This document shows, piece after piece, positions 750 through 63,623 of a DNA stretch of 64,000 nucleotides. Under the pieces are notes generated by a model that saw nothing but the letters and a program-made list of their open reading frames with translations, ran no database searches and had not been told where the DNA came from. Numbering within the stretch: the first letter of the stretch is position 1; every line of letters begins with the position of its first letter. This stretch comes from Escherichia coli. GTDB taxonomy: Bacteria; Pseudomonadota; Gammaproteobacteria; Enterobacterales; Enterobacteriaceae. The position numbers and the translations under genes were made by a program. The DNA lies in assembly GCF_044647545.1 (NCBI RefSeq), contig NZ_CP172818.1. One strand, given 5' to 3'.

Positions 750-2255
750 TTAGACATAGCGTTGAGGTAGAGAAACGCTGACACGCGTGCCGTGCAAACA
801 GGAGATGGTCAAGGTGCCGCCCAGCGCCGTTACGCGCTCGCGCATTCCGGTGAGGCCAAAACCTTGTTGCCCGGAACCCGGCGGCAAACCGCTGCCATCG
901 TCTTCAATTACCAGCATCAACCGTTCATCCTGCTGCCAGCCTTGCAGGGTGACCGCGCTGGCATCGGCATGTTTCACAATGTTGTTCAACCCTTCCTGGC
1001 AGACGCGAAACAGCGTCACGCGCTGGTTTTCGCTTAACGCTGATTCATCGATTCGCCATTCGAGATGACTGACAATGCCGCGCCCTTCCAGCTCCATTTC
1101 CCGCATCAGTGAGCGGATGGCCTGCTCCAGGGTGAGATCATCCAGCTGGCGCGGACGTAACCGCCCTAACAAACGGCGCACCGCATCGTAAACACCCAGC
1201 GACAGTTGTTCGATGAGCTGCCCGCTCTGCTTCACGCTGGCGTTATCTGCCGCCAGCCGCTGAACAATACCTGCTTGAGTACGAATAGCAGTGATGGTCT
1301 GACCGATATCGTCGTGCAGCTCACGCGCCACATCACGGCGCACGCTCTCTTCAGTTTCTAACAAACGTTCAGCCAGATGCTGATTGCGCGCTAGTTCCTT
1401 TTGCAGCGACTGGTTAAGTTCACGCAACCGCTGGATGCCTGCGCCCAGTAACAACCCTGTCAGACTTTGCACCAGCAGCGAGAGCAATAAATCCACCGAA
1501 TGATCGCGCCAGGTTTGACTGGCGATCAGCGCGATGGCGTTCATCAACGTCGCAATCAGCGCCCCTTGCCAGCCGTAGTGCCAGGCCAGCGCGATAATCG
1601 GCAGCGCCAGGCAGAATGGCGTAAAGCGCGACAGTTCGTCCGGCAATCCCAACTGGAGCCAGAGACTGATAACAAACAGCAGCAAGTACCAGACCAGATG
1701 CCGCCCGCGCCAGTTGATCGGTTGAGAAACTAACGACGGCCCGAGCGGCAGCCAGATGTTATTGGCGAGATAGTGCCAGAACACCAGACATATCGGGGCC
1801 AGCGTCAGGCCGCCAGTTAAAGTCAGCAACAGCGCATTCCACGACTCTTTCCCGTGCCAAAGCCAGGGCAGCGACTGCAACAACGCCGCCGCCGTCAGCG
1901 CCGCACCCTGTAACAGCAAGGTGCGCCAGTCACGTTGATGGCGATAGCGCGAGATCAGCGCCACGGGCAATAACGTCAGTAAACTACCGATCATCAATAA
2001 GGAGAAATGGGTTAAACCGACCGCCTGCATTAGCCAGTAAATCAGCAGCCACTCCGCACCCAGTAGCACCGGCCAGTATCCGCGCGGGCATTGCAGCATT
2101 AGCCCTAGCCGCAGGCCAAACGGAAATAACAGCACCGCCATATCAGGGCGCTCAACAAGGTGCAGGCTGATACTCCACAGGCAAAACCATGCGGCAGAGA
2201 AGATAAAAAAGCAGGCAATAACGGTAATTAAGCGAGAGAAAAACGTCTTCATCAC
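750..2255 (-). CDS. uhpB: Sensor histidine kinase UhpB
   Basis: 501-aa ORF (500 aa if the second Met is the start) with N-terminal membrane segments and a C-terminal HisKA_3/HATPase region (HDDIGQ...); start overlaps uhpA stop. Confidence 0.95.
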
Positions 2256-2842
2256 CAGCCATCAAACATGCGGCGCGCCAGTTCAACGTCGTTACTGACG
2301 CCCAGTTTTTCCATCAGGTTAGCGCGATGGACGTGTACCGTTTTCGGTGACAAGCCCAGTTCGGCGGCAATCTCTTTCACCGCCATTCCTTGCGCCAGTT
2401 TTTCCGCCACCTGGCGTTCGCGTTTGGTCAGCGGGTCCTGGCGACCGGATGCCAGTTTAATGGCAATATCCGGCGTCAGATAACAGCCGCCCGTGGCAAC
2501 CGTATGCACCGCAGCAATCAGTTCGTCAGGGCTACAACGCTTGGAGAGAAAGCCGCGCGCCCCCGCGTTAAGCGCCTGCTCAACCAGCGCCGGACTGTCA
2601 TGAACAGAGAGCATAATCGTCGCCATACCTTTCGGCAGCTGGCTTAGCAGCTCCAGACCGGAGATATCGGGCATGGAGATATCGCAAATACACACCTGCA
2701 CACCGCGCCCCGGCAGCCCCGCCAACGCCTCGCGCCCCGAACCAAACTCGGCAACTACCTGCAAATCAGGTTCCAGCCCCAGCAGCTGCGCAAAGCCGGA
2801 GCGGACGATGAGGTGATCGTCTATAAGTGCAACGGTGATCAT
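2252..2842 (-). CDS. uhpA: Response regulator UhpA (NarL/FixJ family)
   Basis: 196-aa product [17 protein letters not shown]... from ATG at 2840-2842; receiver domain plus LuxR-type HTH; the 216-aa track ORF is an upstream in-frame extension. Confidence 0.95.
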
Positions 2843-3139
2843 GATTGGGTCCTGGCGGATAAAAAACGCGCATACCTTAACGATAAGCGCGATGTTGTTC
2901 AAGTTGGATATGGGGTATGTATTCTTAATGATGTTGTCTTATCTCAAAACTTACGAAAGTAACGTTGTAGTTTATTCGAAAAACGAATTATTTGTAGTTC
3001 GATTGCAATATTCCTGAAAAATTTCTCCTCCTTCGAAATCTTTTCAGTAACAAAGATCATCCAAAACCTATAATCTTCACGGAACCTCATTAAGAGATCA
3101 TCCACGAGTCGTTATGAATATAATCCTCACCGTATTCGA

Positions 3140-4737
3140 TAAAAGAAATAAAAAATAAAACTAACAATCTATTGTTTTAAAAAAAAAAGGTTGGGAAAGA
3201 AGGGAAAAACAAGAAAAAAAATTTTTTCCCAAGAAAAAAAAAAACCGGGTAACAACAAACCGGGAAAAAAAAAAAAGGTTCCTGATAAAATACCCCCTAT
3301 CAACCGACAGAAACCTTGAACAACATAATACATTACCTATTCCTGAAATACTGAACAAGAAATAATTTTCGTTTTTTCCAACAATTAAAAATTCCAAAAA
3401 ATAAATCAGCAAAAAAATTCAAAAAAAATTCGGAAATTTTTCCAACCACAAAAAACTTATCCCAAAATCAGATGGCATTAATTTTAACCAAAAAAAGAAA
3501 ATGACCCCCCAATTTCGCCAAAGAAAAAAGGAAAAACCCCAAAAAAAATTTTTAAAATTAAAAAAAAAAAGAAATAATTAAGAATAATGATTTCTATATA
3601 TTAATGGCAACAAACAAATATTAAATTACAACACAACACAAACAAACTTTAAGTAAATTACTATACAAATCAATAACAATAACACCTTAACACACAAAAC
3701 AACCTACATTTCACAGTCATAACGAAAAAAATCATAAAACCACTCAATAAATAAAACACCGAAACAAATATAAAAAACATAAAAAAAAAAAAAAAAAAAA
3801 AACAAGAAAAAAAAAAAAAATAAAATAAAAATAAAAAAAAAAACGAAACGAAAAAATAATAAACAATAAAAGACCCCCACAAACAAACAAATCAAAACTA
3901 CACTCACTCCCCCTGATTGATTAAAAAAACATCTCTCAGATATAAAATACATAAAACAAACAAAAAAATAAATGAAAAAAAACAACAAATAAATAATTTA
4001 ATAATAAAAATAAAAATATTACGCAACAACAACTATCAACAAAAAAAATAAAAAAAAAAAACAAAGATAAGAAACGTAAGAAAAAAAAAAAAAAAAAAAA
4101 AAAAGACGAAAAAAAAAAAAAACTATGAATCCGAACAAGTAAAAAAAAAAAAAAAGAACAAACAATAACCAATCAAAAAAAAAAAAATAAATAAAAAAAA
4201 AAAATTCATTTAAAAAATGAAAAAAACACAAAAAAATAGAAAACAAAAAAAATAAAACAAACGGAAAAAAAAAAAAAAAAAAAAGAAGACTGAAGAAAAA
4301 AAATACTAAAAAAATAATTAATATTAAACCAAAAATAAAAAAAAATAAAAAATAAAAAACTAAAAAAACACAAAAAATCAACAAAAAATAAAAAAAAATA
4401 AACAAACCAAAAAAAAAAAAAAAAAAAAACGAAAACATTAAAATATATAACAAAATAAAAACTAAAAAAACAAAAAACAAACAAAAAAAAAAAAGAAATA
4501 ACAATAAAAAAAAAATTATAAACAACCAAAACAAATATAAAAAAAAAAACGAAAACAAAAAAAAATTAAAAAAAAAAAGAAAAATATAAAAAAAAAGAAA
4601 AAAGAAGAAAAATACAAAAAACAAAAAAATAAAAAAAAAAAAAAACACAAAAAAAAAAAAGAAAAACGAAAACAAGAAAAAAAAGAAAAATGTAAAATCA
4701 GCAAAATTCAGAAAATTTGAAAGAGAAAAAACCAAAA
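3140..4737. repeat. Poly(A)-dominated low-complexity tract on the + strand (T-rich on the - strand), non-coding
   Basis: Read directly: A runs longer than 20 nt (e.g. 3781-3802, 4081-4104) separated by single C/G/T or short motifs; frequent stop codons on the + strand; - strand gives only poly-Phe/Leu pseudo-ORFs. Boundaries approximate. Confidence 0.9.
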
Positions 4738-5028
4738 TTACTGAAAAAACACCACGATCTTGTTAAACATCGTCGGATTAGACTGATTACGCTGCACTTT
4801 CACCACATCTTCCAGCTTATCGATTTGGCTTATCACCTACTCCAGACGCTGGTCATCCTTGACCAGTAGCCAGATATGGCTTTTGTCGCTGTCCTGAATC
4901 GGCAGGCAGAGAATGCCTTCAACGTTAAAAGCGCGACGGGCAAAAAGCCCACAAACGTGAGTCATTACGCCCGGATGGTTGCGAACGGTGAGTTCGAGAA
5001 TCACGTTGTCATGAGTTGTGTTTTGCAT
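4738..5028 (-). pseudogene. ilvN: Acetolactate synthase I small (regulatory) subunit IlvN, interrupted by an in-frame TAG at codon 64
   Basis: Codons 1-63 read [63 protein letters not shown], then TAG (+ strand cta at 4837-4839), then 32 further in-frame ilvN-like codons ([32 protein letters not shown]) to TAA at 4738-4740. Confidence 0.85.
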
Positions 5029-5031
5029 GGC

Positions 5032-6720
5032 TTATTCCCCCACCATTTCAGTATTCGCCGCACCTGGCGGCACCATCGGGTACACTTTTTCTTCGGCATC
5101 AATACGCACATGGATCAGCGCCGGGCCAGGGCGATTGATGATTTCCTGTAATGCAGCCTGCGGATCGGTTTCGTTATTCAAATCACAGGTTTCGAGGCCG
5201 AATCCGGCGGCAATCTGCATAAAGTTGATTTTTCCCGGATAGGTAGCGGCAAAAACGCCCTGCTTGTAGAACAGACTCTGTTGCTGATGTACCAGCCCCA
5301 GCGCTTCGTTGTTCATCAGAATGATTTTGACATCCAGCTGATTTTCACTGGCGGTCGCCATCTCCTGAATATTCATCATCAGGCTGCCGTCGCCGGAGAA
5401 ACACAACACTTTGCGATCCGGGTTCGCCAGCGCTGCGCCAATCGCCGCAGGCAGGCCAAAGCCCATCGTGCCCAGCCCGCCGGAGGTCAGCCACTGGCGC
5501 GGGCGATTGAGCGGATAAGCCTGCGCCGTCCACATCTGATGCTGACCCACGTCGGTGGTGATAATCGCGCTGTCATCGACACAGGCGGCAACAGCGTTGA
5601 TCAGGCCGTAATGCGTTAACGGATCGCACGCTTTCGGGATTGGACACGGGAATTCGCGCTGCAAATCCGCCACCAACTGGTGCCACTCTGCACGCGGTTG
5701 CGCTTCCACCAGCGGGATCAATTGCGCCAGCACGTCATCAACATCCGCCTGAATCGCTACGTGCGGTTGCTTGATTTTGCCCAGCTCTGCACGGTCGATA
5801 TCGACATGAATGATTTTCGCATTCGGGCAGAACTGCTCGGTTTTGCCAATCGCCCGGTCATCAAAACGCGCACCGAGCACAATCAGCAGATCCGCCTCCT
5901 GCAGTATATAGTTGGTGCTGCGCACGCCGTGCATCCCCAGCATACCCAGCGACAGCGGATTCGCTTTTGGCAGCATGCCCAGCGCCATTAAGGTCATGGT
6001 AGTTGGCAATTGCGCTTTCTCTGCCAGTTCACGCACCCGTGCGGGCGCATTGATCACACCGCCGCCCAGATAAAGCACCGGGCGTTTGGCGGCGTTAATC
6101 ATTGCCGCTGCGTCACGAATGCTTTCTTCGCTAAAGGCGGGTGCGGCGGCTTTTTCTGCCATAGCTGGCTGTGCTTCAATCTCAAAAACCGCCGTTTGCA
6201 CATCTTTAGGAATGTCTATCCACACCGGGCCAGGGCGGCCTGATTGCGCAATGCGGAAGGCATCGCTCATGACCTGCGGGAGTTCTTCGATATGTCTGAC
6301 CAGATAGTTGTGTTTGGTGATGGGGATAGAGATGCCGTAGGTGTCCACTTCCTGGAAGGCGTCGGTGCCGATCATCGAGGCAGGAACCTGACCGGTGATG
6401 CAAATCAGCGGGATGGAATCCAGCCGCGCATCGGCAATGGCGGTCACCAGGTTAGTCGCACCCGGTCCGCTACAGGCCATACAGACCGCCGGTTTACCGT
6501 CGGTGCGCGCCATTCCCTGAGCGATAAACCCCGCGCCCTGTTCATGGCGAGCCAGAATATGGCGGATTTGCGTGCTTTGGCTTAAGGCATCGTAAACAGG
6601 CAGGATAGAACCGCCCGGAATGCCCGTCACAATCTTAATGCCCTGCTGTTCCAGGAAATGAACGATAAATTCTGCGCCGGTAAAGCGCTTACGCGTCGAT
6701 GTTGTGCCCGAACTTGCCAT
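5032..6720 (-). CDS. ilvB: Acetolactate synthase I large subunit IlvB (ThDP/FAD enzyme)
   Basis: 562-aa ORF with ThDP-binding acetohydroxyacid synthase signature (GDGSLMMNIQE...); immediately upstream of ilvN with a 3-nt gap. Confidence 0.95.
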   Translation of the reverse strand: MASSGTTSTRKRFTGAEFIVHFLEQQGIKIVTGIPGGSILPVYDALSQSTQIRHILARHEQGAGFIAQGMARTDGKPAVCMACSGPGATNLVTAIADARLDSIPLICITGQVPASMIGTDAFQEVDTYGISIPITKHNYLVRHIEELPQVMSDAFRIAQSGRPGPVWIDIPKDVQTAVFEIEAQPAMAEKAAAPAFSEESIRDAAAMINAAKRPVLYLGGGVINAPARVRELAEKAQLPTTMTLMALGMLPKANPLSLGMLGMHGVRSTNYILQEADLLIVLGARFDDRAIGKTEQFCPNAKIIHVDIDRAELGKIKQPHVAIQADVDDVLAQLIPLVEAQPRAEWHQLVADLQREFPCPIPKACDPLTHYGLINAVAACVDDSAIITTDVGQHQMWTAQAYPLNRPRQWLTSGGLGTMGFGLPAAIGAALANPDRKVLCFSGDGSLMMNIQEMATASENQLDVKIILMNNEALGLVHQQQSLFYKQGVFAATYPGKINFMQIAAGFGLETCDLNNETDPQAALQEIINRPGPALIHVRIDAEEKVYPMVPPGAANTEMVGE

Positions 6721-6765
6721 GCTCCAGTCCTTTTCTTCTGGGCCGACTTTCCGGGAGGTGCTTAA

Positions 6766-6798
6766 ACGAAAAACCCCGCCCGGTTTGCGCCGGCGGGG
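6766..6798 (-). terminator. ilvB attenuator (rho-independent terminator downstream of the leader peptide)
   Basis: GC-rich inverted repeat ccccgcc...ggcgggg (6774-6798) followed on the - strand by a U-run, between ivbL and ilvB. Confidence 0.75.
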
Positions 6799-6825
6799 TT
6801 TTGGAATCGTGTGTTGTTCCAGTCC

Positions 6826-6924
6826 CTACGGCGCATTGCCGACGACGACCACCACACGCACGACGACCACTGCGGCGGATGGCGCAGTTGGTAGTAGTTT
6901 TGCGTTGAGCATGGAAGTAGTCAT
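6826..6924 (-). CDS. ivbL: ilvB operon leader peptide (Val/Leu-rich attenuation peptide)
   Basis: Translated by hand: MTTSMLNAKLLPTAPSAAVVVVRVVVVVGNAP (32 aa), with the classic Val run. Confidence 0.9.
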   Translation of the reverse strand: MTTSMLNAKLLPTAPSAAVVVVRVVVVVGNAP

Positions 6925-7084
6925 TGGGGACCTTGTTGGTTTTGTGTTTAACAATATTTATACAAGCACAGCTTTACAGGGGAGACAATGGAAAATTTTT
7001 CAGCAAGGGAAAATTGAGGGGTTGATCACGTTTTGTACTGAATTGCGGGTAACAAAAAACCCCGCCGGAGCGAGGTTTCGTCAG

Positions 7085-7230
7085 TCGCCTGCGGCTGGTA
7101 ACCGCAAAGCACACTGTATTATGTCAACACTGAAAGTATACGTGTTCCGCGCAGAACGCGCAATTTCGGCACGAATTTTGACGTATTTAGTACATAGTTG
7201 AGTATCGTTCACAGTTTTCGTTTTGTCCAA
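7085..7230 (-). ncRNA. istR: Probable IstR antitoxin sRNA region (IstR-1/IstR-2), divergent from tisB; boundaries approximate
   Basis: Position between ivbL and the LexA box/tisB matches the known istR-tisAB arrangement; exact ends cannot be fixed from sequence alone. Confidence 0.4.
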
Positions 7231-7234
7231 ATAT

Positions 7235-7254
7235 TACTGTTTATTTATACAGTA
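7235..7254. promoter_or_regulatory. LexA (SOS) box at the tisAB/istR-2 promoter
   Basis: TACTGTTTATTTATACAGTA fits the CTGT-N8-ACAG LexA consensus; a TATAAT -10 hexamer follows at 7261-7266. Confidence 0.85.
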
Positions 7255-7488
7255 AACTTCTATAATATCACTGTACGCAATGTGTTATGCGGGGGCCGCA
7301 TCGTTACCCGGCGCACTAAGTCCTGGCTGAAACGGGTGGTGCCGTCAGCGCCTTAACCCCGCGTGAGCACACTGTGTTATGTCAACAAGCACAACGTTTC
7401 TCCTTGAGATACCGCGTGCACAACAGCTGGCAACAGGCAGCGGAAAGGTACGTCAGCTGGCAGTGCTCCTGAACCACAGGAGACGCGT

Positions 7489-7578
7489 ATGAGCCTGGTG
7501 GATATCGCCATTCTTATCCTCAAACTCATTGTTGCAGCACTGCAACTGCTTGATACTGTTCTGAAATACCTGAAGTAA
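7489..7578 (+). CDS. tisB: Type I toxin TisB (SOS-induced small membrane peptide)
   Basis: Translated by hand: MSLVDIAILILKLIVAALQLLDTVLKYLK (29 aa), downstream of the LexA box. Confidence 0.85.
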   Translation: MSLVDIAILILKLIVAALQLLDTVLKYLK

Positions 7579-7600
7579 TTCAGATTCAAGTCGCACCAAA

Positions 7601-7630
7601 GGGGAGCGGGTAACCGCTCCCCTTTCATAT
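7601..7630 (+). terminator. Rho-independent terminator after tisB
   Basis: Hairpin ggggagcgg/ccgctcccc followed by a T-rich stretch. Confidence 0.7.
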
Positions 7631-7857
7631 TTAGCGTGCGGGTTGGTGTCGGATGCAATGCTGATGCATCTTATCCGCCCTACCATCCCTCCCGGCAACA
7701 TTTATTGCCGCTTTTGTTTACATATTCTGCCGCTAAACAATTCCCCATTCCTGGCGTATATCTGGCTAACATTTATCAATGTGATAGATTCCTCTCCCGC
7801 ATTTATGGGAATGCGTAGTGACTTATTCTAATTATTTTTATAAAAGCATCCGTGATA

Positions 7858-9042
7858 ATGAAAAGGCATAGAAACGTCAATTTGTTATTGATGTTGGTAT
7901 TACTCGTGGCCGTCGGTCAGATGGCGCAAACCATATATATTCCAGCTATTGCCGATATGGCGCGCGATCTCAACGTCCGTGAAGGGGCGGTGCAGAGCGT
8001 AATGGGCGCTTATCTGCTGACTTACGGTGTCTCACAGCTGTTTTATGGCCCGATTTCCGACCGTGTGGGTCGCCGACCGGTGATCCTCGTCGGAATGTCC
8101 ATTTTTATGCTGGCAACGCTGGTCGCGGTCACGACCTCCAGTTTGACAGTATTGATTGCCGCCAGCGCGATGCAGGGGATGGGCACCGGCGTTGGCGGCG
8201 TAATGGCGCGTACTTTGCCGCGTGATTTATATGAACGGACACAGTTGCGCCATGCTAATAGCCTGTTAAACATGGGAATTCTTGTCAGTCCGTTGCTCGC
8301 ACCGCTAATCGGCGGTCTGCTGGATACGATGTGGAACTGGCGCGCCTGTTATCTCTTTTTGTTGGTACTTTGTGCCGGTGTGACCTTCAGTATGGCCCGC
8401 TGGATGCCGGAAACGCGTCCGGTCGACGCACCGCGCACGCGCCTGCTTACCAGTTATAAAACGCTTTTCGGTAACAGCGGTTTTAACTGTTATTTGCTGA
8501 TGCTGATTGGCGGTCTGGCCGGGATTGCCGCCTTTGAAGCCTGCTCCGGCGTGCTGATGGGCGCGGTGTTAGGGTTGAGCAGTATGACGGTCAGTATTTT
8601 GTTTATTCTGCCGATTCCGGCGGCATTTTTTGGGGCATGGTTTGCCGGACGTCCTAATAAACGCTTCTCAACGTTGATGTGGCAGTCGGTTATCTGCTGC
8701 CTGCTGGCTGGCTTACTGATGTGGATCCCCGACTGGTTTGGCGTGATGAATGTCTGGACGCTGCTCGTTCCCGCCGCGCTGTTCTTTTTCGGTGCCGGGA
8801 TGCTGTTTCCGCTGGCGACCAGCGGCGCGATGGAGCCGTTCCCTTTCCTGGCGGGCACGGCTGGCGCGCTGGTCGGCGGTCTACAAAACATTGGTTCCGG
8901 CGTGCTGGCGTCGCTCTCTGCGATGTTGCCGCAAACCGGTCAGGGCAGCCTGGGGTTGTTGATGACCTTAATGGGATTGTTGATCGTGCTGTGCTGGCTA
9001 CCGCTGGCGACGCGGATGTCGCATCAGGGGCAGCCTGTTTAA
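7858..9042 (+). CDS. emrD: Multidrug efflux MFS transporter EmrD
   Basis: 394 aa from ATG at 7858 (MKRHRNVNLLLMLVLLVAVGQMAQTIYIP...); the track ORF starts two codons upstream at GTG. Confidence 0.95.
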   Translation: MKRHRNVNLLLMLVLLVAVGQMAQTIYIPAIADMARDLNVREGAVQSVMGAYLLTYGVSQLFYGPISDRVGRRPVILVGMSIFMLATLVAVTTSSLTVLIAASAMQGMGTGVGGVMARTLPRDLYERTQLRHANSLLNMGILVSPLLAPLIGGLLDTMWNWRACYLFLLVLCAGVTFSMARWMPETRPVDAPRTRLLTSYKTLFGNSGFNCYLLMLIGGLAGIAAFEACSGVLMGAVLGLSSMTVSILFILPIPAAFFGAWFAGRPNKRFSTLMWQSVICCLLAGLLMWIPDWFGVMNVWTLLVPAALFFFGAGMLFPLATSGAMEPFPFLAGTAGALVGGLQNIGSGVLASLSAMLPQTGQGSLGLLMTLMGLLIVLCWLPLATRMSHQGQPV

Positions 9043-10243: not shown

Positions 10244-10302
10244 TGTTGCTCCTTAACTGTTCCTCGCCGAAAAAAGTAGGCCAGGAAAACAGCAATAATG
10301 CA

Positions 10303-13674: not shown

Positions 13675-17021
<3,347 letters not shown>

Positions 17022-23859: not shown

Positions 23860-25148
23860 CCAACGCGCTTCACATCGCCCACCAGCAGGATGTAAGAGAG
23901 CGCGCCAATCAACGCAACGGCGGAGATATAAACCAGTGCAGGCGCGAAACCGTAACCCTGCGCCAGGTACCCCACCACCAGAGGAACGGTGATGCCGCCC
24001 AGACCACCGACAAAGTTAAACACGCCGCCGGTTAAACCAATCAGGCGCATCGGTGCCAGAGAAGAGACCAGCGACCAGGTAATCGAAGCAAAACCGTTGC
24101 CGAAGAATGCCAGCGCCATCAGGCACATAATCATCATCGGATCGTTAGTGTAGTTAGCGCCCATAATGCAGGTGGAGATCAGCAAGCCGCAGATAATCGG
24201 CGTTTTACGCGCAAAGCCCAGTGAAAAGCCCTTACGTACCAGCAGATCCGCGACCCAGCCAGAGAGCAGGACGCCGACAAACGCCGCGAGGAACGGTACC
24301 GTGGTCATAAAGCCTGCTTTCAGCGCCGTGATTCCTTTTTCCTGGGTTAAATAGTTCGGGAACCAGGTTAAAAAAAACCACAGTGTAGAAGCCACCGCAA
24401 ATTGCCCAAGATAGACACCGATCAGTTTACGATGGAACACCAGTTTCCAGTCTTTGGCTGTTAACGGCTGACGCGCCTCTTTTTTCACCGGCGCATCACC
24501 ATCCACCAGACCGCCGCCATCACGAATGTAATCCAGTTCAGCTTTGCTGATGCCTTTAGTCAGGCGCGGCGGCTGATAAACCTTAAACCAAATCAGCGAC
24601 CAGATAATGCCGATACCACCGGTGACAATGAACACCCAGTGCCAGCTCAACATTTCCTGAATCCAGATCAGCAGCGGAGTCAGAAACGCCAGACCGACAA
24701 ACTGACCAGACGTATAAAAACCAACGGCAGAAGCGCGTTCATGTTCCGGGAACCAGCTGGTCACCATCCGGTTATTGGTCGGGAAAGCGGGCGCTTCGAA
24801 AATACCGGTTATCGCGCGCAGACCAATTAATGACATTAATCCCGTGGCAAAGCCCTGGAATAACGTCGCCACTGACCAGCCAAATATCGCAATAAAATAA
24901 GTCACGCGTGAACCTACGCGATCTAAAAACCAACCGCCGGGGATCTGACATAGCGTATAAAGCCAGGCGAAGGCCGAAAATACATAGCCCATTTCCGCTT
25001 TCGTAATACCGAACTCTTCCTGAATATGGGCGGAAGCCACGGCCAGGTTAGCGCGGTCAACATAACAAATGACCACCGTAATAAAGATCATCACCAGCGT
25101 CAGATAACGCCGACGCCCCGGCTTTGCTGCATTAACGGGAATATCCAT
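23856..25148 (-). CDS. dgoT: D-galactonate:H+ symporter DgoT (MFS)
   Basis: 430 aa from internal Met ([22 protein letters not shown]...). Confidence 0.9.
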
Positions 25149-25267
25149 AGCGAGCTTTCTCCAGATTTTGGGCATAGCGAAGCCGCTCACCATGCCCTGT
25201 AATTTACAGAGGGTTATATTTTTGTATTGCTGTTTTAGTGCCCGATGAGGGGCTTACGTGGCAGGAA

Positions 25268-26416
25268 TTACCACTCTGCTACGCTGTTATCTTCATGACG
25301 CCAGAGCGGATTACGCCAGTCCGGGGCATTTTTACTGAACTCAATAACTTTAGCTTCGTCGATTTCCACGCCTAAGCCCGGTTTCGTTAGCGGTTTAAAG
25401 AAGCCGCCAACCATGCTGAAGTCTTCTTTGTTTTTCACAAAGTCGAGTAACTCCGCGCCTTTGTTGTAATGAATTCCCATACTTTGTTCCTGAAGTACGG
25501 CGTTATAGGAAACAAAGTCGATATGCAGACAAGCTGCCAGTGCAATCGGTCCGAGCGGACAGTGCGGCGCAAGGGTCACGTCATAGGCTTCTGCCATTCC
25601 GGCAATTTTGTAGCATTCGGTAATACCGCCTGCATGAGAGAGATCTGGTTGCAGAATCGAAATACCGCCCGCCTCCAGCACGCGTTTAAAATCGAAACGT
25701 GAGAACATGCGTTCACCCGCCGCCAGAGGAATATGCGTTTGTGCCGCCAGTTTCGGGTAGTATTCGGCCTGTTCCGCCAGCACCGGCTCTTCAATAAACA
25801 GCGGGCGATACGGTTCCAGTTCTTTAATCAGTACTTTCGCCATCGGCGCGCTGACGCGACCGTGGAAATCAAGACCAAACTCAATCTGATTGCCAAAAGC
25901 TTCACGAATTTGTGCCACGGTGTTGACTGCCGCATCTACCGCGCGGGAGTTATCAATTAGCCCCAGTTCTTCACAACCGTTCAGTTTGAAGGTATCGAAG
26001 CCGATTTCGCGCAGGGTTTTAATGCCGTCGATAACATTCGCCGGACGATCGCCGCCGACCCAACTGTAGGCTTTAATTTTGTCACGAACCAGGCCACCCA
26101 TCAGTTGCCAGACCGGCGCATTCAGCACTTTACCTTTGATATCCCATAACGCCTGGTCGATCCCGGCGATGGCGCTCATCAGGATCGGACCGCCACGATA
26201 AAATCCGGCGCGATACATCACTTGCCATAAGTCATTGATGCGCGATGGATCCTGACCAATCAAATAGTCACTCAGCTCGTGAACTGCCGCTTCCACCGTA
26301 CGAGCGCGGCCTTCGATCACGGGCTCGCCCCAACCGACCACGCCTTCATCGGTTTCAATTTTCAGGAACATCCAGCGGGGAGGTAAACGATACGTAGTAA
26401 TTTTGGTGATTTTCAT
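25268..26416 (-). CDS. dgoD: D-galactonate dehydratase DgoD (enolase superfamily)
   Basis: 382-aa [35 protein letters not shown]... Confidence 0.95.
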
Positions 26417-27030
26417 TGCACTGCCTCTCGATACGCCTTAACAAATGCTGCTGCCTGCTGCGCGGTGCGTTCTACGGATTGCCCGGCGCGATAGAGATCG
26501 CTGCCTAAGCCCGCCCCTGCACAACCTGCGTCTATCCACTGCGCCAGGTTTTCTGGCGTCACACCGCCAACGGCAAAGACTGCGATGTCCTGCGGTAATA
26601 CCGCTTTTAACGCTTTGATGTATTGCGGACCAAAAGCCGATGACGGGAATATTTTCAGCGCCTGCGCGCCCGCGTCGATCGCGGTAAAGGCTTCAGTCGC
26701 CGTCGCGCAGCCGGGGCAAACGGTCATGCCATAGCCCACCGCGCGGCGGATCACTTCACTATGGATATTGGGCGTAACGATGAGCTGGCAGCCCATCCTG
26801 GCGAGCGTATCGACCTGTTCAGGTTTCAGTACCGTACCTGCGCCAATCAACGCCTTATCGCCGTACGCATCAACGATGGCGGGAATGCTTTTCTCCCATT
26901 GAGGGGAATTCAGCGGGATTTCAACCGCGTCGAACCCGGCGTCAATCACCGCGCCAACATGCGCCAGCGCCTCGTCGGGCGTAATACCGCGCAAAATGGC
27001 GATCAGCGGGAGTTTAGTTTGCCACTGCAT
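26413..27030 (-). CDS. dgoA: 2-dehydro-3-deoxy-6-phosphogalactonate aldolase DgoA
   Basis: 205-aa ORF, overlaps dgoD start. Confidence 0.95.
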
Positions 27031-27892
27031 GAGCGATGCTCCTTATACCAGCCTGAAATGCCTTGTCGCCCGCTACCACCGCCACGTCGCAACCCATCGC
27101 CTGAAAGGCTTGCTGGTAGCGCGCGGTCAGCGATGTTCCGGCGACAAGGGTGATGGCGTGTTGATGGGTCACATAGTCGCGCATACTGGCAACCTCTGCG
27201 CCAATCAACAAACCAGAGAGAAATTCGCTGACCTGTTCACGGGGAAGCGTTCCCAGCACATGCGATGCGCGAACTTCAAAAAGCTGCGGCAATATGGCGG
27301 GCGCATTAAGGCCACGCTCAAGGCCAGCCGCGAAGGCATCGGCAGAGTTTTCCTGCGGCGGCAAACCTGCGCCAATCAATGAGTGATTTAACAGTAAATG
27401 ATGTAATTCACCGGTCATTACGGTGCGAAAATCGTTGATTTGCTGGCTATCGGCCTGCACCCATTTGCAATGCGTACCGGGCATGACATAAAGAGAGGAA
27501 GGAGCCAAAGCACGCGCGCCGATCAATTGTGTTTCTTCGCCGCGCATCACATTGTGGTTATCGTCATGAGAAACGCATAATCCGGGAATAATCCAGATAT
27601 TGTCGCCAACAGACGTTAATTGTTCGCCAATAGATGAAAAACGGGCAGGAACAGATAAATACGGTGCAACTTTCCAGCCGACATTGCTGCCGACCATTCC
27701 TGCCATCACCACTGGCGTATTCTCTTCACGCCAGTCGGCCGTGACTTCTGCTAACACCGCAGCCGGAGATTTTCCGTTCAGGCGCGTGACGCCTGCTTCT
27801 GATTGCCTGCTCTCCAGGCAGTGGTCGCCCTGATAAAGCCAGGCGCGCAGATTGGTCGATCCCCAGTCAATTGCGATGTAGCGAGCTGTCAT
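27014..27892 (-). CDS. dgoK: 2-dehydro-3-deoxygalactonokinase DgoK
   Basis: 292-aa ORF, overlaps dgoA and dgoR. Confidence 0.95.
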   Translation of the reverse strand: MTARYIAIDWGSTNLRAWLYQGDHCLESRQSEAGVTRLNGKSPAAVLAEVTADWREENTPVVMAGMVGSNVGWKVAPYLSVPARFSSIGEQLTSVGDNIWIIPGLCVSHDDNHNVMRGEETQLIGARALAPSSLYVMPGTHCKWVQADSQQINDFRTVMTGELHHLLLNHSLIGAGLPPQENSADAFAAGLERGLNAPAILPQLFEVRASHVLGTLPREQVSEFLSGLLIGAEVASMRDYVTHQHAITLVAGTSLTARYQQAFQAMGCDVAVVAGDKAFQAGIRSIAHAVAN

Positions 27893-28578
27893 GTGATTTC
27901 CTTTAACCTTCGTGTCGAGCTGGCGATCATGGTAAGCGCCGCCTGCTCTGCCGCATCGCCGTCCTGATGCCGTATCGCATCAAACAGCGCCTTATGTTCC
28001 TGGAGCGTTTGCGGCATGTTGGCCTCATCACCCATCCAGGTTCGTTCAAATACCGCCCGCTGCAGCGAACTGATCGCAATGCTAAGTTGCTGTAACACCG
28101 GGTTATGCACCGACTGCAGCACCGCCTCGTGGTAGCGAATATCCGCTTCGTTAAACGCTTCGCGGTCCTGATTGTTGGCAATCATCTCGTTCAGCGCTGA
28201 TTCAATCTGCGCCAGATCGCTGGAAGTCGCGCGCTCTGCCGCCCAACGGGCAATCGCCGGTTCCACCAGATTTCGCACTTCGCTCATTGCACTGATAAGC
28301 CGTGGGTCGTAGTCGTTTTCCAGCACCCATTGCAGTACGTCAGTATCGAGGTAATTCCACTGATTACGCGGTGCCACAAACGCCCCGCGATAACGTTTCA
28401 TTTCAATCAGCCGCTTCGCCATCAGCGAACGGAACACCTCACGGATGATGTTGCGCGAGGTTGCAAACTCCTCACAGAGCTCCGCCTCAGCCGGAAGCGG
28501 CGAGCCTGGTACGTATTTGCCGTGAACGATCTGTTTACCCAGCGTAATGACGATGCGATCGGTTTTATTGAGAGTCAT
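27889..28578 (-). CDS. dgoR: GntR/FadR-family repressor of the dgo operon DgoR
   Basis: 229-aa ORF with N-terminal wHTH; first gene of dgoRKADT. Confidence 0.95.
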   Translation of the reverse strand: MTLNKTDRIVITLGKQIVHGKYVPGSPLPAEAELCEEFATSRNIIREVFRSLMAKRLIEMKRYRGAFVAPRNQWNYLDTDVLQWVLENDYDPRLISAMSEVRNLVEPAIARWAAERATSSDLAQIESALNEMIANNQDREAFNEADIRYHEAVLQSVHNPVLQQLSIAISSLQRAVFERTWMGDEANMPQTLQEHKALFDAIRHQDGDAAEQAALTMIASSTRRLKEIT

Positions 28579-28855
28579 GGAGAGTCCTTGTGCTCTGTAT
28601 GTTCTTCTCTACTTTACCCCGATCGATGCATAACGCGGCAACTTTGTAGTACCAGCGTGATGACGTTCGCGTTTTCCGTGTGCGTAATGTAGTACAAGCT
28701 TATATTACTGTACTACAATTTAGATCACAAAAAGAACAATGCATAAAAAAATGACATGCGTCGGGCAGAAATCTGAAAAGGGATAACAGGCGCTAAACAG
28801 GAGGGAAAGAAGAGTATGCTTTCAACGACTTAGCTACTCGTTTAAAGGATTAATC

Positions 28856-30881: not shown

Positions 30882-31015
30882 GATAATCACCTGTAAAGCG
30901 TTACGTGTTGACCCAAAAAGTATAGATCTGCGGGATGATAATTGCGGATTGCAGAAATAAAAAGGGCGGAGATGATCTCCCGCGACTAAGTCATTTTATC
31001 AGCAACAAAAAGCCA

Positions 31016-50089: not shown

Positions 50090-50755
50090 ATGTCCCAGAT
50101 AGAAGCGGTATTTTTCGACTGCGACGGTACGCTGGTCGATAGCGAGGTCATTTGCTCTCGCGCCTATGTCACGATGTTCAGGGAATTTGGCATTCACGTT
50201 GACCTGGAGGAGATTTTTACCCGTTTTAAAGGCGTAAAACTCTACGAAATCATCGACATCATCAGTAAAGAACAGGGCGTGACGATGATCCAGGCCGATG
50301 CCGAGCACGTTTACCGCGCAGAAGTGGCGCGTCTGTTTGATACCGAACTTGAGGACATCGCAGGAGCGAACGAATTGCTGGCGAGCATTAACGTGCCGAT
50401 GTGCGTCGTCTCTAACGGTCCGATCAACAAAATGCAGCATTCGCTGGGTAAGCTCAAGATGCTGCACTACTTCCCGGAAAAACTGTTCAGCGGCTACGAT
50501 ATCCAGCGTTGGAAGCCCGACCCGGCGTTAATGTTCCATGCGGCAAAAGCGATGAATGTAAACGTTGAAAACTGCATTCTGGTCGATGACTCCAGCGCCG
50601 GTGCGCAATCAGGGATAGATGCCGGAATGGAAGTGTTTTACTTCTGCGCTGACCCGCACAATAAACCGATCGTTCACCCGAAAGTCACCACATTTACCGA
50701 GCTGGCGCAGCTGCCTGCACTCTGGAAGGCACGCGGCTGGAATATAACGGCATAG
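50090..50755 (+). CDS. yieH: HAD-superfamily phosphatase YieH
   Basis: 221-aa ORF MSQIEAVFFDCDGTLVDSE (DxDGT HAD motif I). Confidence 0.9.
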   Translation: MSQIEAVFFDCDGTLVDSEVICSRAYVTMFREFGIHVDLEEIFTRFKGVKLYEIIDIISKEQGVTMIQADAEHVYRAEVARLFDTELEDIAGANELLASINVPMCVVSNGPINKMQHSLGKLKMLHYFPEKLFSGYDIQRWKPDPALMFHAAKAMNVNVENCILVDDSSAGAQSGIDAGMEVFYFCADPHNKPIVHPKVTTFTELAQLPALWKARGWNITA

Positions 50756-50821
50756 TTCTTCACACTCCCTTCACTTACCCCGCTTAAATTGGCGCTCAAA
50801 GGTAAGTAAAGGGAGTTTGAT

Positions 50822-60908: not shown

Positions 60909-63623
<2,715 letters not shown>

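Follow-up and report, generated by a model that had tools for sequence, protein, structure and literature searches.

The 64 kb window, by which we mean the whole stretch of E. coli DNA that was analysed, contains between uhpA and ilvN an interval that consists largely of A, and the question raised by this locus is whether the interval is a genetic element or a fault in the record. In the part that was first noticed (3140-4737), the composition is 66.7% A, 14.6% T, 12.8% C and 5.9% G; the segment 3780-4737 is 75% A, and the GC content drops to 10-12% at 4300-4700. Outside the tract, A makes up 24.4% of the window and the longest A run is 11 nt. All 14 A runs of at least 12 nt in the 64 kb lie inside the tract, the longest being 24 nt, and T runs of at least 10 nt were not found anywhere in the window. 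These counts bear out the A-dominated, strand-asymmetric composition that was described in an earlier note on this DNA.

The same note had reported no credible ORF, periodicity or inverted repeats, and this held up. The long minus-strand ORFs of the tract are poly-Phe read-throughs. TRF and repeat searches of the tract returned just 64-70% 'matches', which are explained by A-richness alone, and revealed neither periodicity nor inverted repeats. An Rfam search of the tract gave zero matches, and no direct or inverted repeats were found at its boundaries. It was also right that mobile-element genes are lacking, as there are none in the flanks and a comparison of phage and plasmid collections with the tract returned nothing beyond low-complexity junk and the natural island described below.

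The island between uhpA and ilvN

A short spacer between uhpA and ilvN had been expected, and many E. coli do have one, of 72 bp in the genome L001. However, many other E. coli carry there an island of ~3.4 kb that contains two hypothetical genes (for example L002), and so do the closest relatives of the lineage to which the window belongs. The closest of all is E. coli RS571 (NZ_CP034389.1), which is 99.8% identical over 24 kb and has a 3,424 bp island between uhpA and ilvN at NZ_CP034389.1 32795-36218 (L004 5315-8738). For this lineage, a 'short wild-type intergenic region' was the wrong expectation, and the true sequence at the site of the tract is most likely a 3.4 kb island rather than a short spacer. 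A second natural example of the island is found in MS1050 (NZ_CP097726.1 33435-36900).

The natural island is 36% GC and codes for two paralogous proteins of about 435-496 aa that share 25% identity (E = 3e-22). Searches of the island proteins against NCBIfam and PADLOC returned no credible family match; a sub-threshold NCBIfam match of an island protein to blaLAP (E = 0.006, 15.6 bits against a 600-bit cut-off) was taken as chance. Annotation of the island genes is inconsistent, the second gene being called at just 160 aa and the first being frameshifted in RS571. The two genes of the natural island lie at L002 9145-12197 (NZ_CP097726.1) and at L004 5476-8700 (RS571). One PLSDB 'plasmid', NZ_CP141089.1, is a 4.9 Mb E. 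coli record with the uhpA-ilvN island and, as it carries this island, appears to be a chromosome.

When the window was compared with RS571, positions 1-2923 were 100% identical, with zero differences. On the right side there are ten differences, all at 4754-4960, and none at 4961-9000. As divergence in both flanks is otherwise zero, the abnormal interval replaces the island on an essentially undiverged backbone. The uhpA-ilvN interval of the window is 1,895 bp compared with 3,424 bp for the RS571 island, a loss of ~45% of the length. The features of the locus are as follows.

2252-2842, minus strand: uhpA, intact, a 216/196-aa ORF that is 100% identical to RS571
2843-2902: spacer upstream of uhpA, ending ...GTTGTTCAAG, conserved whether or not a genome has the island, as seen when L001, L004 and the window are aligned
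2903-2923: first 21 nt of the island, intact and identical to the RS571 island (L004 5375-5395)
2924-3643: degraded island sequence that can still be traced (to L004 about 5396-6377); at the start only G drops out, and further on T and C are deleted as well and bases are replaced by A
3644-4737: A-dominated, information-poor residue, consistent with further collinear decimation of the remaining island
4738-5028, minus strand: ilvN, homology being regained exactly at its stop codon, the right boundary of the island
5032-6720, minus strand: ilvB, the right flank beyond ilvN

The first 81 bp past the uhpA start codon, comprising the 60 bp common spacer and 21 nt of island, are intact (2843-2923 is identical to RS571), and the left junction, ...GTTGTTCAAG followed by TTGGATATGGGG..., is present. 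From 2924 onwards there are serial deletions of single bases, nearly all of them G, and deeper in the tract deletions are more frequent and are accompanied by replacement with A. Among the initial 250 positions of the island, the deleted fraction is 47% for G, 6% for C, 6% for T and 0% for A (72/72 kept), and there are zero substitutions; the loss of G differs from that of the other bases at p = 3e-13 (Fisher's test). The abnormality is already present from 2924 and not, as had been stated, from 3140, the stretch between these positions looking normal by eye with approximately half of its G's missing. In the deeper tract, C, G and T have been deleted at 70-87% while about 90-95% of A is kept, and ~10-15% of the survivors have been rewritten as A. 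The deep part contains 858 A's compared with 775 in the island, so A's must have been written in, beyond mere retention.

The order of the remaining bases identifies their source. All 337 non-A bases of 2924-3540 occur in the island in the same order, as a perfect subsequence of its 549 non-A bases, compared with 299 +/- 2.5 for shuffles, and there are no non-A substitutions or insertions among these 617 damaged bases. Gapped alignment of 200-nt segments lost the homology past ~3540 because its penalties are too harsh for 50-85% deletion. LCS and a channel-aware DP, which scores each position as keep, delete or write-A and takes significance from permutation of the non-A letters in 120-nt segments, traced it to ~3643 and then again at 3884-4003. 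With the DP, the whole tract fits collinearly with the island and every non-A base is matched. The z values per 120 nt over 2924-3643 are 17.7, 17.2, 6.8, 17.7, 8.1 and 4.2, and the patch at 3884-4003 (z = 4.6) falls at the island position predicted by collinearity, about 6800-7003. Other deep segments, in which the information content is low, have z values of about 0-3. The ilvN stop codon, where homology is regained, is the point at which genomes with and without the island re-align.

The tract and the natural island share the same site, left junction and right boundary, and base order is kept for at least 1.6 kb of the island. They differ in that the natural island is 3.4 kb with two genes, whereas the copy in the window is 1.9 kb, A-filled and encodes nothing, none of the island ORFs having survived. 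Far from being featureless, as it had seemed, the tract retains the ordered information of the uhpA-ilvN island. From these sequence comparisons, we conclude that it is a collinear, decimated copy of an RS571-type island and no new genetic element. An insertion of a retroelement or other poly(A)-tailed sequence was rejected, given a collinear local remnant, no repeat boundaries and no mobile genes in the flanks.

Further lesions and variation in the window

None of 5,426 complete E. coli genomes carries the tract, and it was likewise missing from the public collections of genes and contigs that were searched. An exact 48-mer had no match in GTDB genomes or JGI metagenomes, and neither of two lesion-specific ORFs was found by exact look-up in the public gene index. 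The window was accounted for by comparison with RS571 (L004 and L011) and strain G5 (L012), and the 64 kb includes at least three, and probably four, further lesions of the same kind, with non-A bases deleted and A's added.

14780-14805: 505 bp of a 6-phospho-alpha-glucosidase gene (L004 18781-19285) replaced by the 26-nt A-rich sequence TTTCCCACAAAAAACAAAAAAAAAAA
10255-10287, yidH-yidJ spacer: GTA deleted, then A and AA added
30981-30983, between yidB and gyrB: 9 nt of a terminator hairpin deleted
61772-61773, pstA-pstB spacer: TT deleted, converting GTGTTAACC to GTGAACC, seen against RS571 only

None of the 4,269 complete genomes covering the site lacks the 505 bp that are missing from the glucosidase gene, and the 7-mer GTGGTTC bounds the missing segment on both sides. 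The fusion ORF made by this lesion is absent from the public gene index. For 10255-10287, the closest match in natural genomes has the sequence unaltered (96.3%), and the homopolymer miscounts involve only A (AAAAA to AAAAAA and AA to AAAA). The yidB-gyrB hairpin is intact in RS571 and in three natural metagenome contigs of the same lineage. Each of the lesions at 14780-14805, 10255-10287 and 30981 was absent from every natural genome examined. Apart from the tract and these lesions, the window is error-free relative to natural relatives, and the failure is therefore local and the assembly not poor in general.

The ten substitutions in ilvN relative to RS571 (4754-4960) include a CAG to TAG change that leaves a 63-aa ORF (4837-5028, minus strand) in place of 96 aa. 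An identical 63-aa IlvN (AHAS I small subunit) was found on 40 public contigs (NCBI, ENA, Logan), which either lack the uhpA-ilvN island or have a DeoR/PfkB segment in its place. Those natural contigs share the variants of eight of the ten sites, and the changes at the remaining two are synonymous. At the DNA level, searches of GTDB genomes, JGI metagenomes and complete E. coli genomes returned no exact copy of the ilvN allele. As the changes include T to C, C to T, A to C and G to C, they fall outside the error channel of the tract, and the natural 63-aa allele together with these channel-incompatible substitution types rules them out as tract damage. A suspicious 'mosaic' was also rejected, since interleaved shared sites are expected on a tree (compare the dgo alleles below). 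We read the patch, which directly abuts the tract lesion, as natural variation, probably a short recombination import.

Two other regions differ from RS571. In dgoT-dgoR (24010-28828), the window departs from RS571 by 43 substitutions: 29 are synonymous, 7 change an amino acid and 7 are intergenic. The best match to this region in a complete genome is still RS571 (99.1%), the DgoK protein allele of the window also occurs in ENA metagenome contigs, and the region resembles a divergent allele of natural origin or a recombination tract. Further along, sequence identical to RS571, including a very divergent yieH allele, ends precisely with the yieH stop codon (50749-50760), and a cbrB-yieKL-bglHBFG block follows that has a single difference from strain G5 in 9.4 kb. 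The return from the G5-type block is at about 60181, near the phoU stop. The combination of an RS571-type yieH with a G5-type bgl block was found in no complete E. coli genome (best 98.7%).

Origin of the tract

The tract is almost certainly an artefact and not a real genomic feature. Taking all non-biological origins together, we have very little doubt that one of them applies, as the earlier note had proposed; this is borne out by the uniqueness of the tract, the 100% identical flanks and the keep/delete/write-A transform of an RS571-type island. The tract is absent from close relatives and its error pattern is explicable by a calling rule, two of the marks by which an artefact would be recognised, and the main lesion is restricted to the segment that separates genomes with the island from genomes without it. 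As the keep/delete/write-A channel contains no non-A error, neither mutation nor raw read noise accounts for it and a software step is indicated. A collapse in raw basecalling, which had also been suggested, fits poorly with zero non-A substitutions or insertions in 617 damaged bases.

An error at the assembly or consensus stage is our preferred version and has about an even prospect of being the right one. A software step would have worked through the true island sequence position by position and left the tract behind. We infer that the program responsible was most likely a column-wise consensus caller or a polisher, working on a stretch where read support was poor or contradictory. Each base of the true sequence would have been output as itself, as nothing (a gap) or as the default letter A. 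Support would fall from left to right, with G lost first and T and C next, and with A always favoured the output would shrink to 55% of the true length and drift to 75% A. Normal calling would come back abruptly at the right island boundary, the ilvN stop codon. That the A's are always on the + strand fits a process acting on the assembled strand and not on randomly oriented reads.

Polishers introduce errors, including large deletions, at poor depth (PMC11261834), and published polisher and consensus errors resemble the tract in being local damage, deletions included, in an otherwise correct, high-quality assembly (PMC11261834). However, the errors in print are small and scattered, with an occasional large deletion, whereas the tract is a graded keep/delete/write-A transform of 1.8 kb. 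A literature search for a 'gap or A' failure mode of a polisher or consensus caller returned general reports only. We know of no documented polisher or consensus caller with a failure mode that is exactly 'gap or A'. Also telling against a consensus-stage error are the smooth decay over 1.8 kb and abrupt reset, which lack a proven cause, and the 505-bp lesion, as the gene that it interrupts is ordinary and widely conserved and would not be expected to have poor read support. Polishing against the majority of homologues, in the manner of Homopolish, would predict majority ilvN alleles; those of the window look minority-like against L001, L002 and L004 (few genomes aligned) and the K-12 ilvN sequence. 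As this comparison covers a handful of sequences, it weakens the Homopolish-like idea for substitutions only.

Rewriting in silico after assembly is a serious possibility, if somewhat short of an even prospect. Here, a neural sequence model copying or regenerating a real genome, or deliberate corruption of one, would have dropped characters, drifted to an 'A' attractor in accessory or intergenic DNA that is hard to predict, and re-synchronised at a distinctive anchor. The clean keep/delete/write-A channel and the A-only homopolymer miscounts are what such a process would leave, and the 505-bp skip lies between copies of the repeated 7-mer GTGGTTC. Lesions lie in accessory or intergenic sequence of low predictability, the main one stopping exactly at a gene and island boundary, and they are in no public record searched. 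An RS571-type yieH beside a G5-type bgl block, with the switch at a stop codon and no complete genome alike, points the same way.

Genome language models do collapse into multi-kb homopolymer runs (bioRxiv 10.64898/2026.01.17.700093). In the collapse reported for Evo 2-type models, pure single-nucleotide runs appear after hundreds of kb and there is no recovery (bioRxiv 10.64898/2026.01.17.700093). The likeness to the tract is in the drift to a multi-kilobase near-homopolymer, with quality decaying with distance; unlike that collapse, the tract has exact natural flanks, a collinear real template and in-register recovery. Free autoregressive generation cannot yield 100.00% identity over tens of kb on both sides, nor in-register recovery, and the collapse of a free-running generative model was rejected given the exact natural sequence on both sides and the recovery in register at 4738. 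As the retained bases are collinear with the island for at least 1.6 kb, the process must have had the true sequence as input, meaning copying or corruption and not generation. A loss that takes G first and A never is also no obvious design for a corruption script.

A very unlikely source is one aberrant long read of low-complexity junk that entered the draft and, as good reads failed to align there, escaped polishing. Public assemblies do include such junk, as in RefSeq NZ_CP095532.1, which matches the reverse strand of the tract at 69%, and partial polishing from the edges could give a gradient of fidelity. However, noise this severe would include non-A substitutions and insertions, which the 617 damaged bases lack, and the four other lesions would need four more bad reads in the same orientation.

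NZ_CP095532.1 (E. coli GN06156 'plasmid unnamed1') is 14.5 kb and linear and contains two copies of frameshifted cusS/cusR fragments. Each copy is joined to several kb of T/G low-complexity sequence, with hypothetical proteins of up to 1,160 aa, and the record is almost certainly a junk long-read contig in RefSeq. Like the tract, it is strand-asymmetric low-complexity sequence in a public E. coli assembly with long 'hypothetical protein' ORFs. It passes abruptly from real sequence to T/G noise with no template order, whereas the tract has graded decay and ordered remnants. As a precedent for the tract itself it was rejected, the BLAST similarity being compositional only.

That the tract is real DNA is highly improbable. 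A horizontally acquired island would then have become an A-tract through local hypermutation or erosion, or the site would have been filled by a polymerase that is non-templated or biased to A. In favour of this, the backbone is a genuine E. coli lineage and the neighbouring ilvN nonsense allele is natural. Against it, more than 1,500 events would have to fall in 1.8 kb, while the adjoining 2.9 kb on the left and 4 kb on the right (past 4960) have zero changes, and dozens of separate single-G deletions would have to occur without one substitution. The same signature is found at unlinked sites, one of them inside a conserved gene, and the tract is absent from the complete genomes and the public gene and contig collections searched. 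A tract physically in the chromosome would be a new island converted in situ to a strand-specific A-tract by a targeted process, which is scarcely credible, and that process would have to delete G, T and C, add A and scar other loci too, which we find equally hard to credit. We know of no mutational or repair process that deletes G, T and C while sparing A on one strand.

The earlier note had also listed a chimeric join to contaminant DNA that contains poly(A). Such a join, for example with eukaryotic cDNA or a poly(A) tail, would account for the A-richness and strand asymmetry only and is vanishingly unlikely, indeed refuted: collinearity with the local island starts at the first base of the tract, the bacterial flanks are in register at both junctions, and the phage and plasmid searches matched only junk and the island.

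Consequences for the record

As no new element is present, the tract has no biological importance. What it does affect is data hygiene, as the record silently destroys a 3.4 kb two-gene island and breaks a glucosidase gene. Gene callers would make long spurious poly-Phe 'proteins' from the tract. The damage has a signature that can easily be screened for, namely an excess of A on one strand, non-A bases that are an ordered subsequence of a relative, G lost first, and several lesions per record, and such a screen is applicable to other assemblies or to generated sequences.
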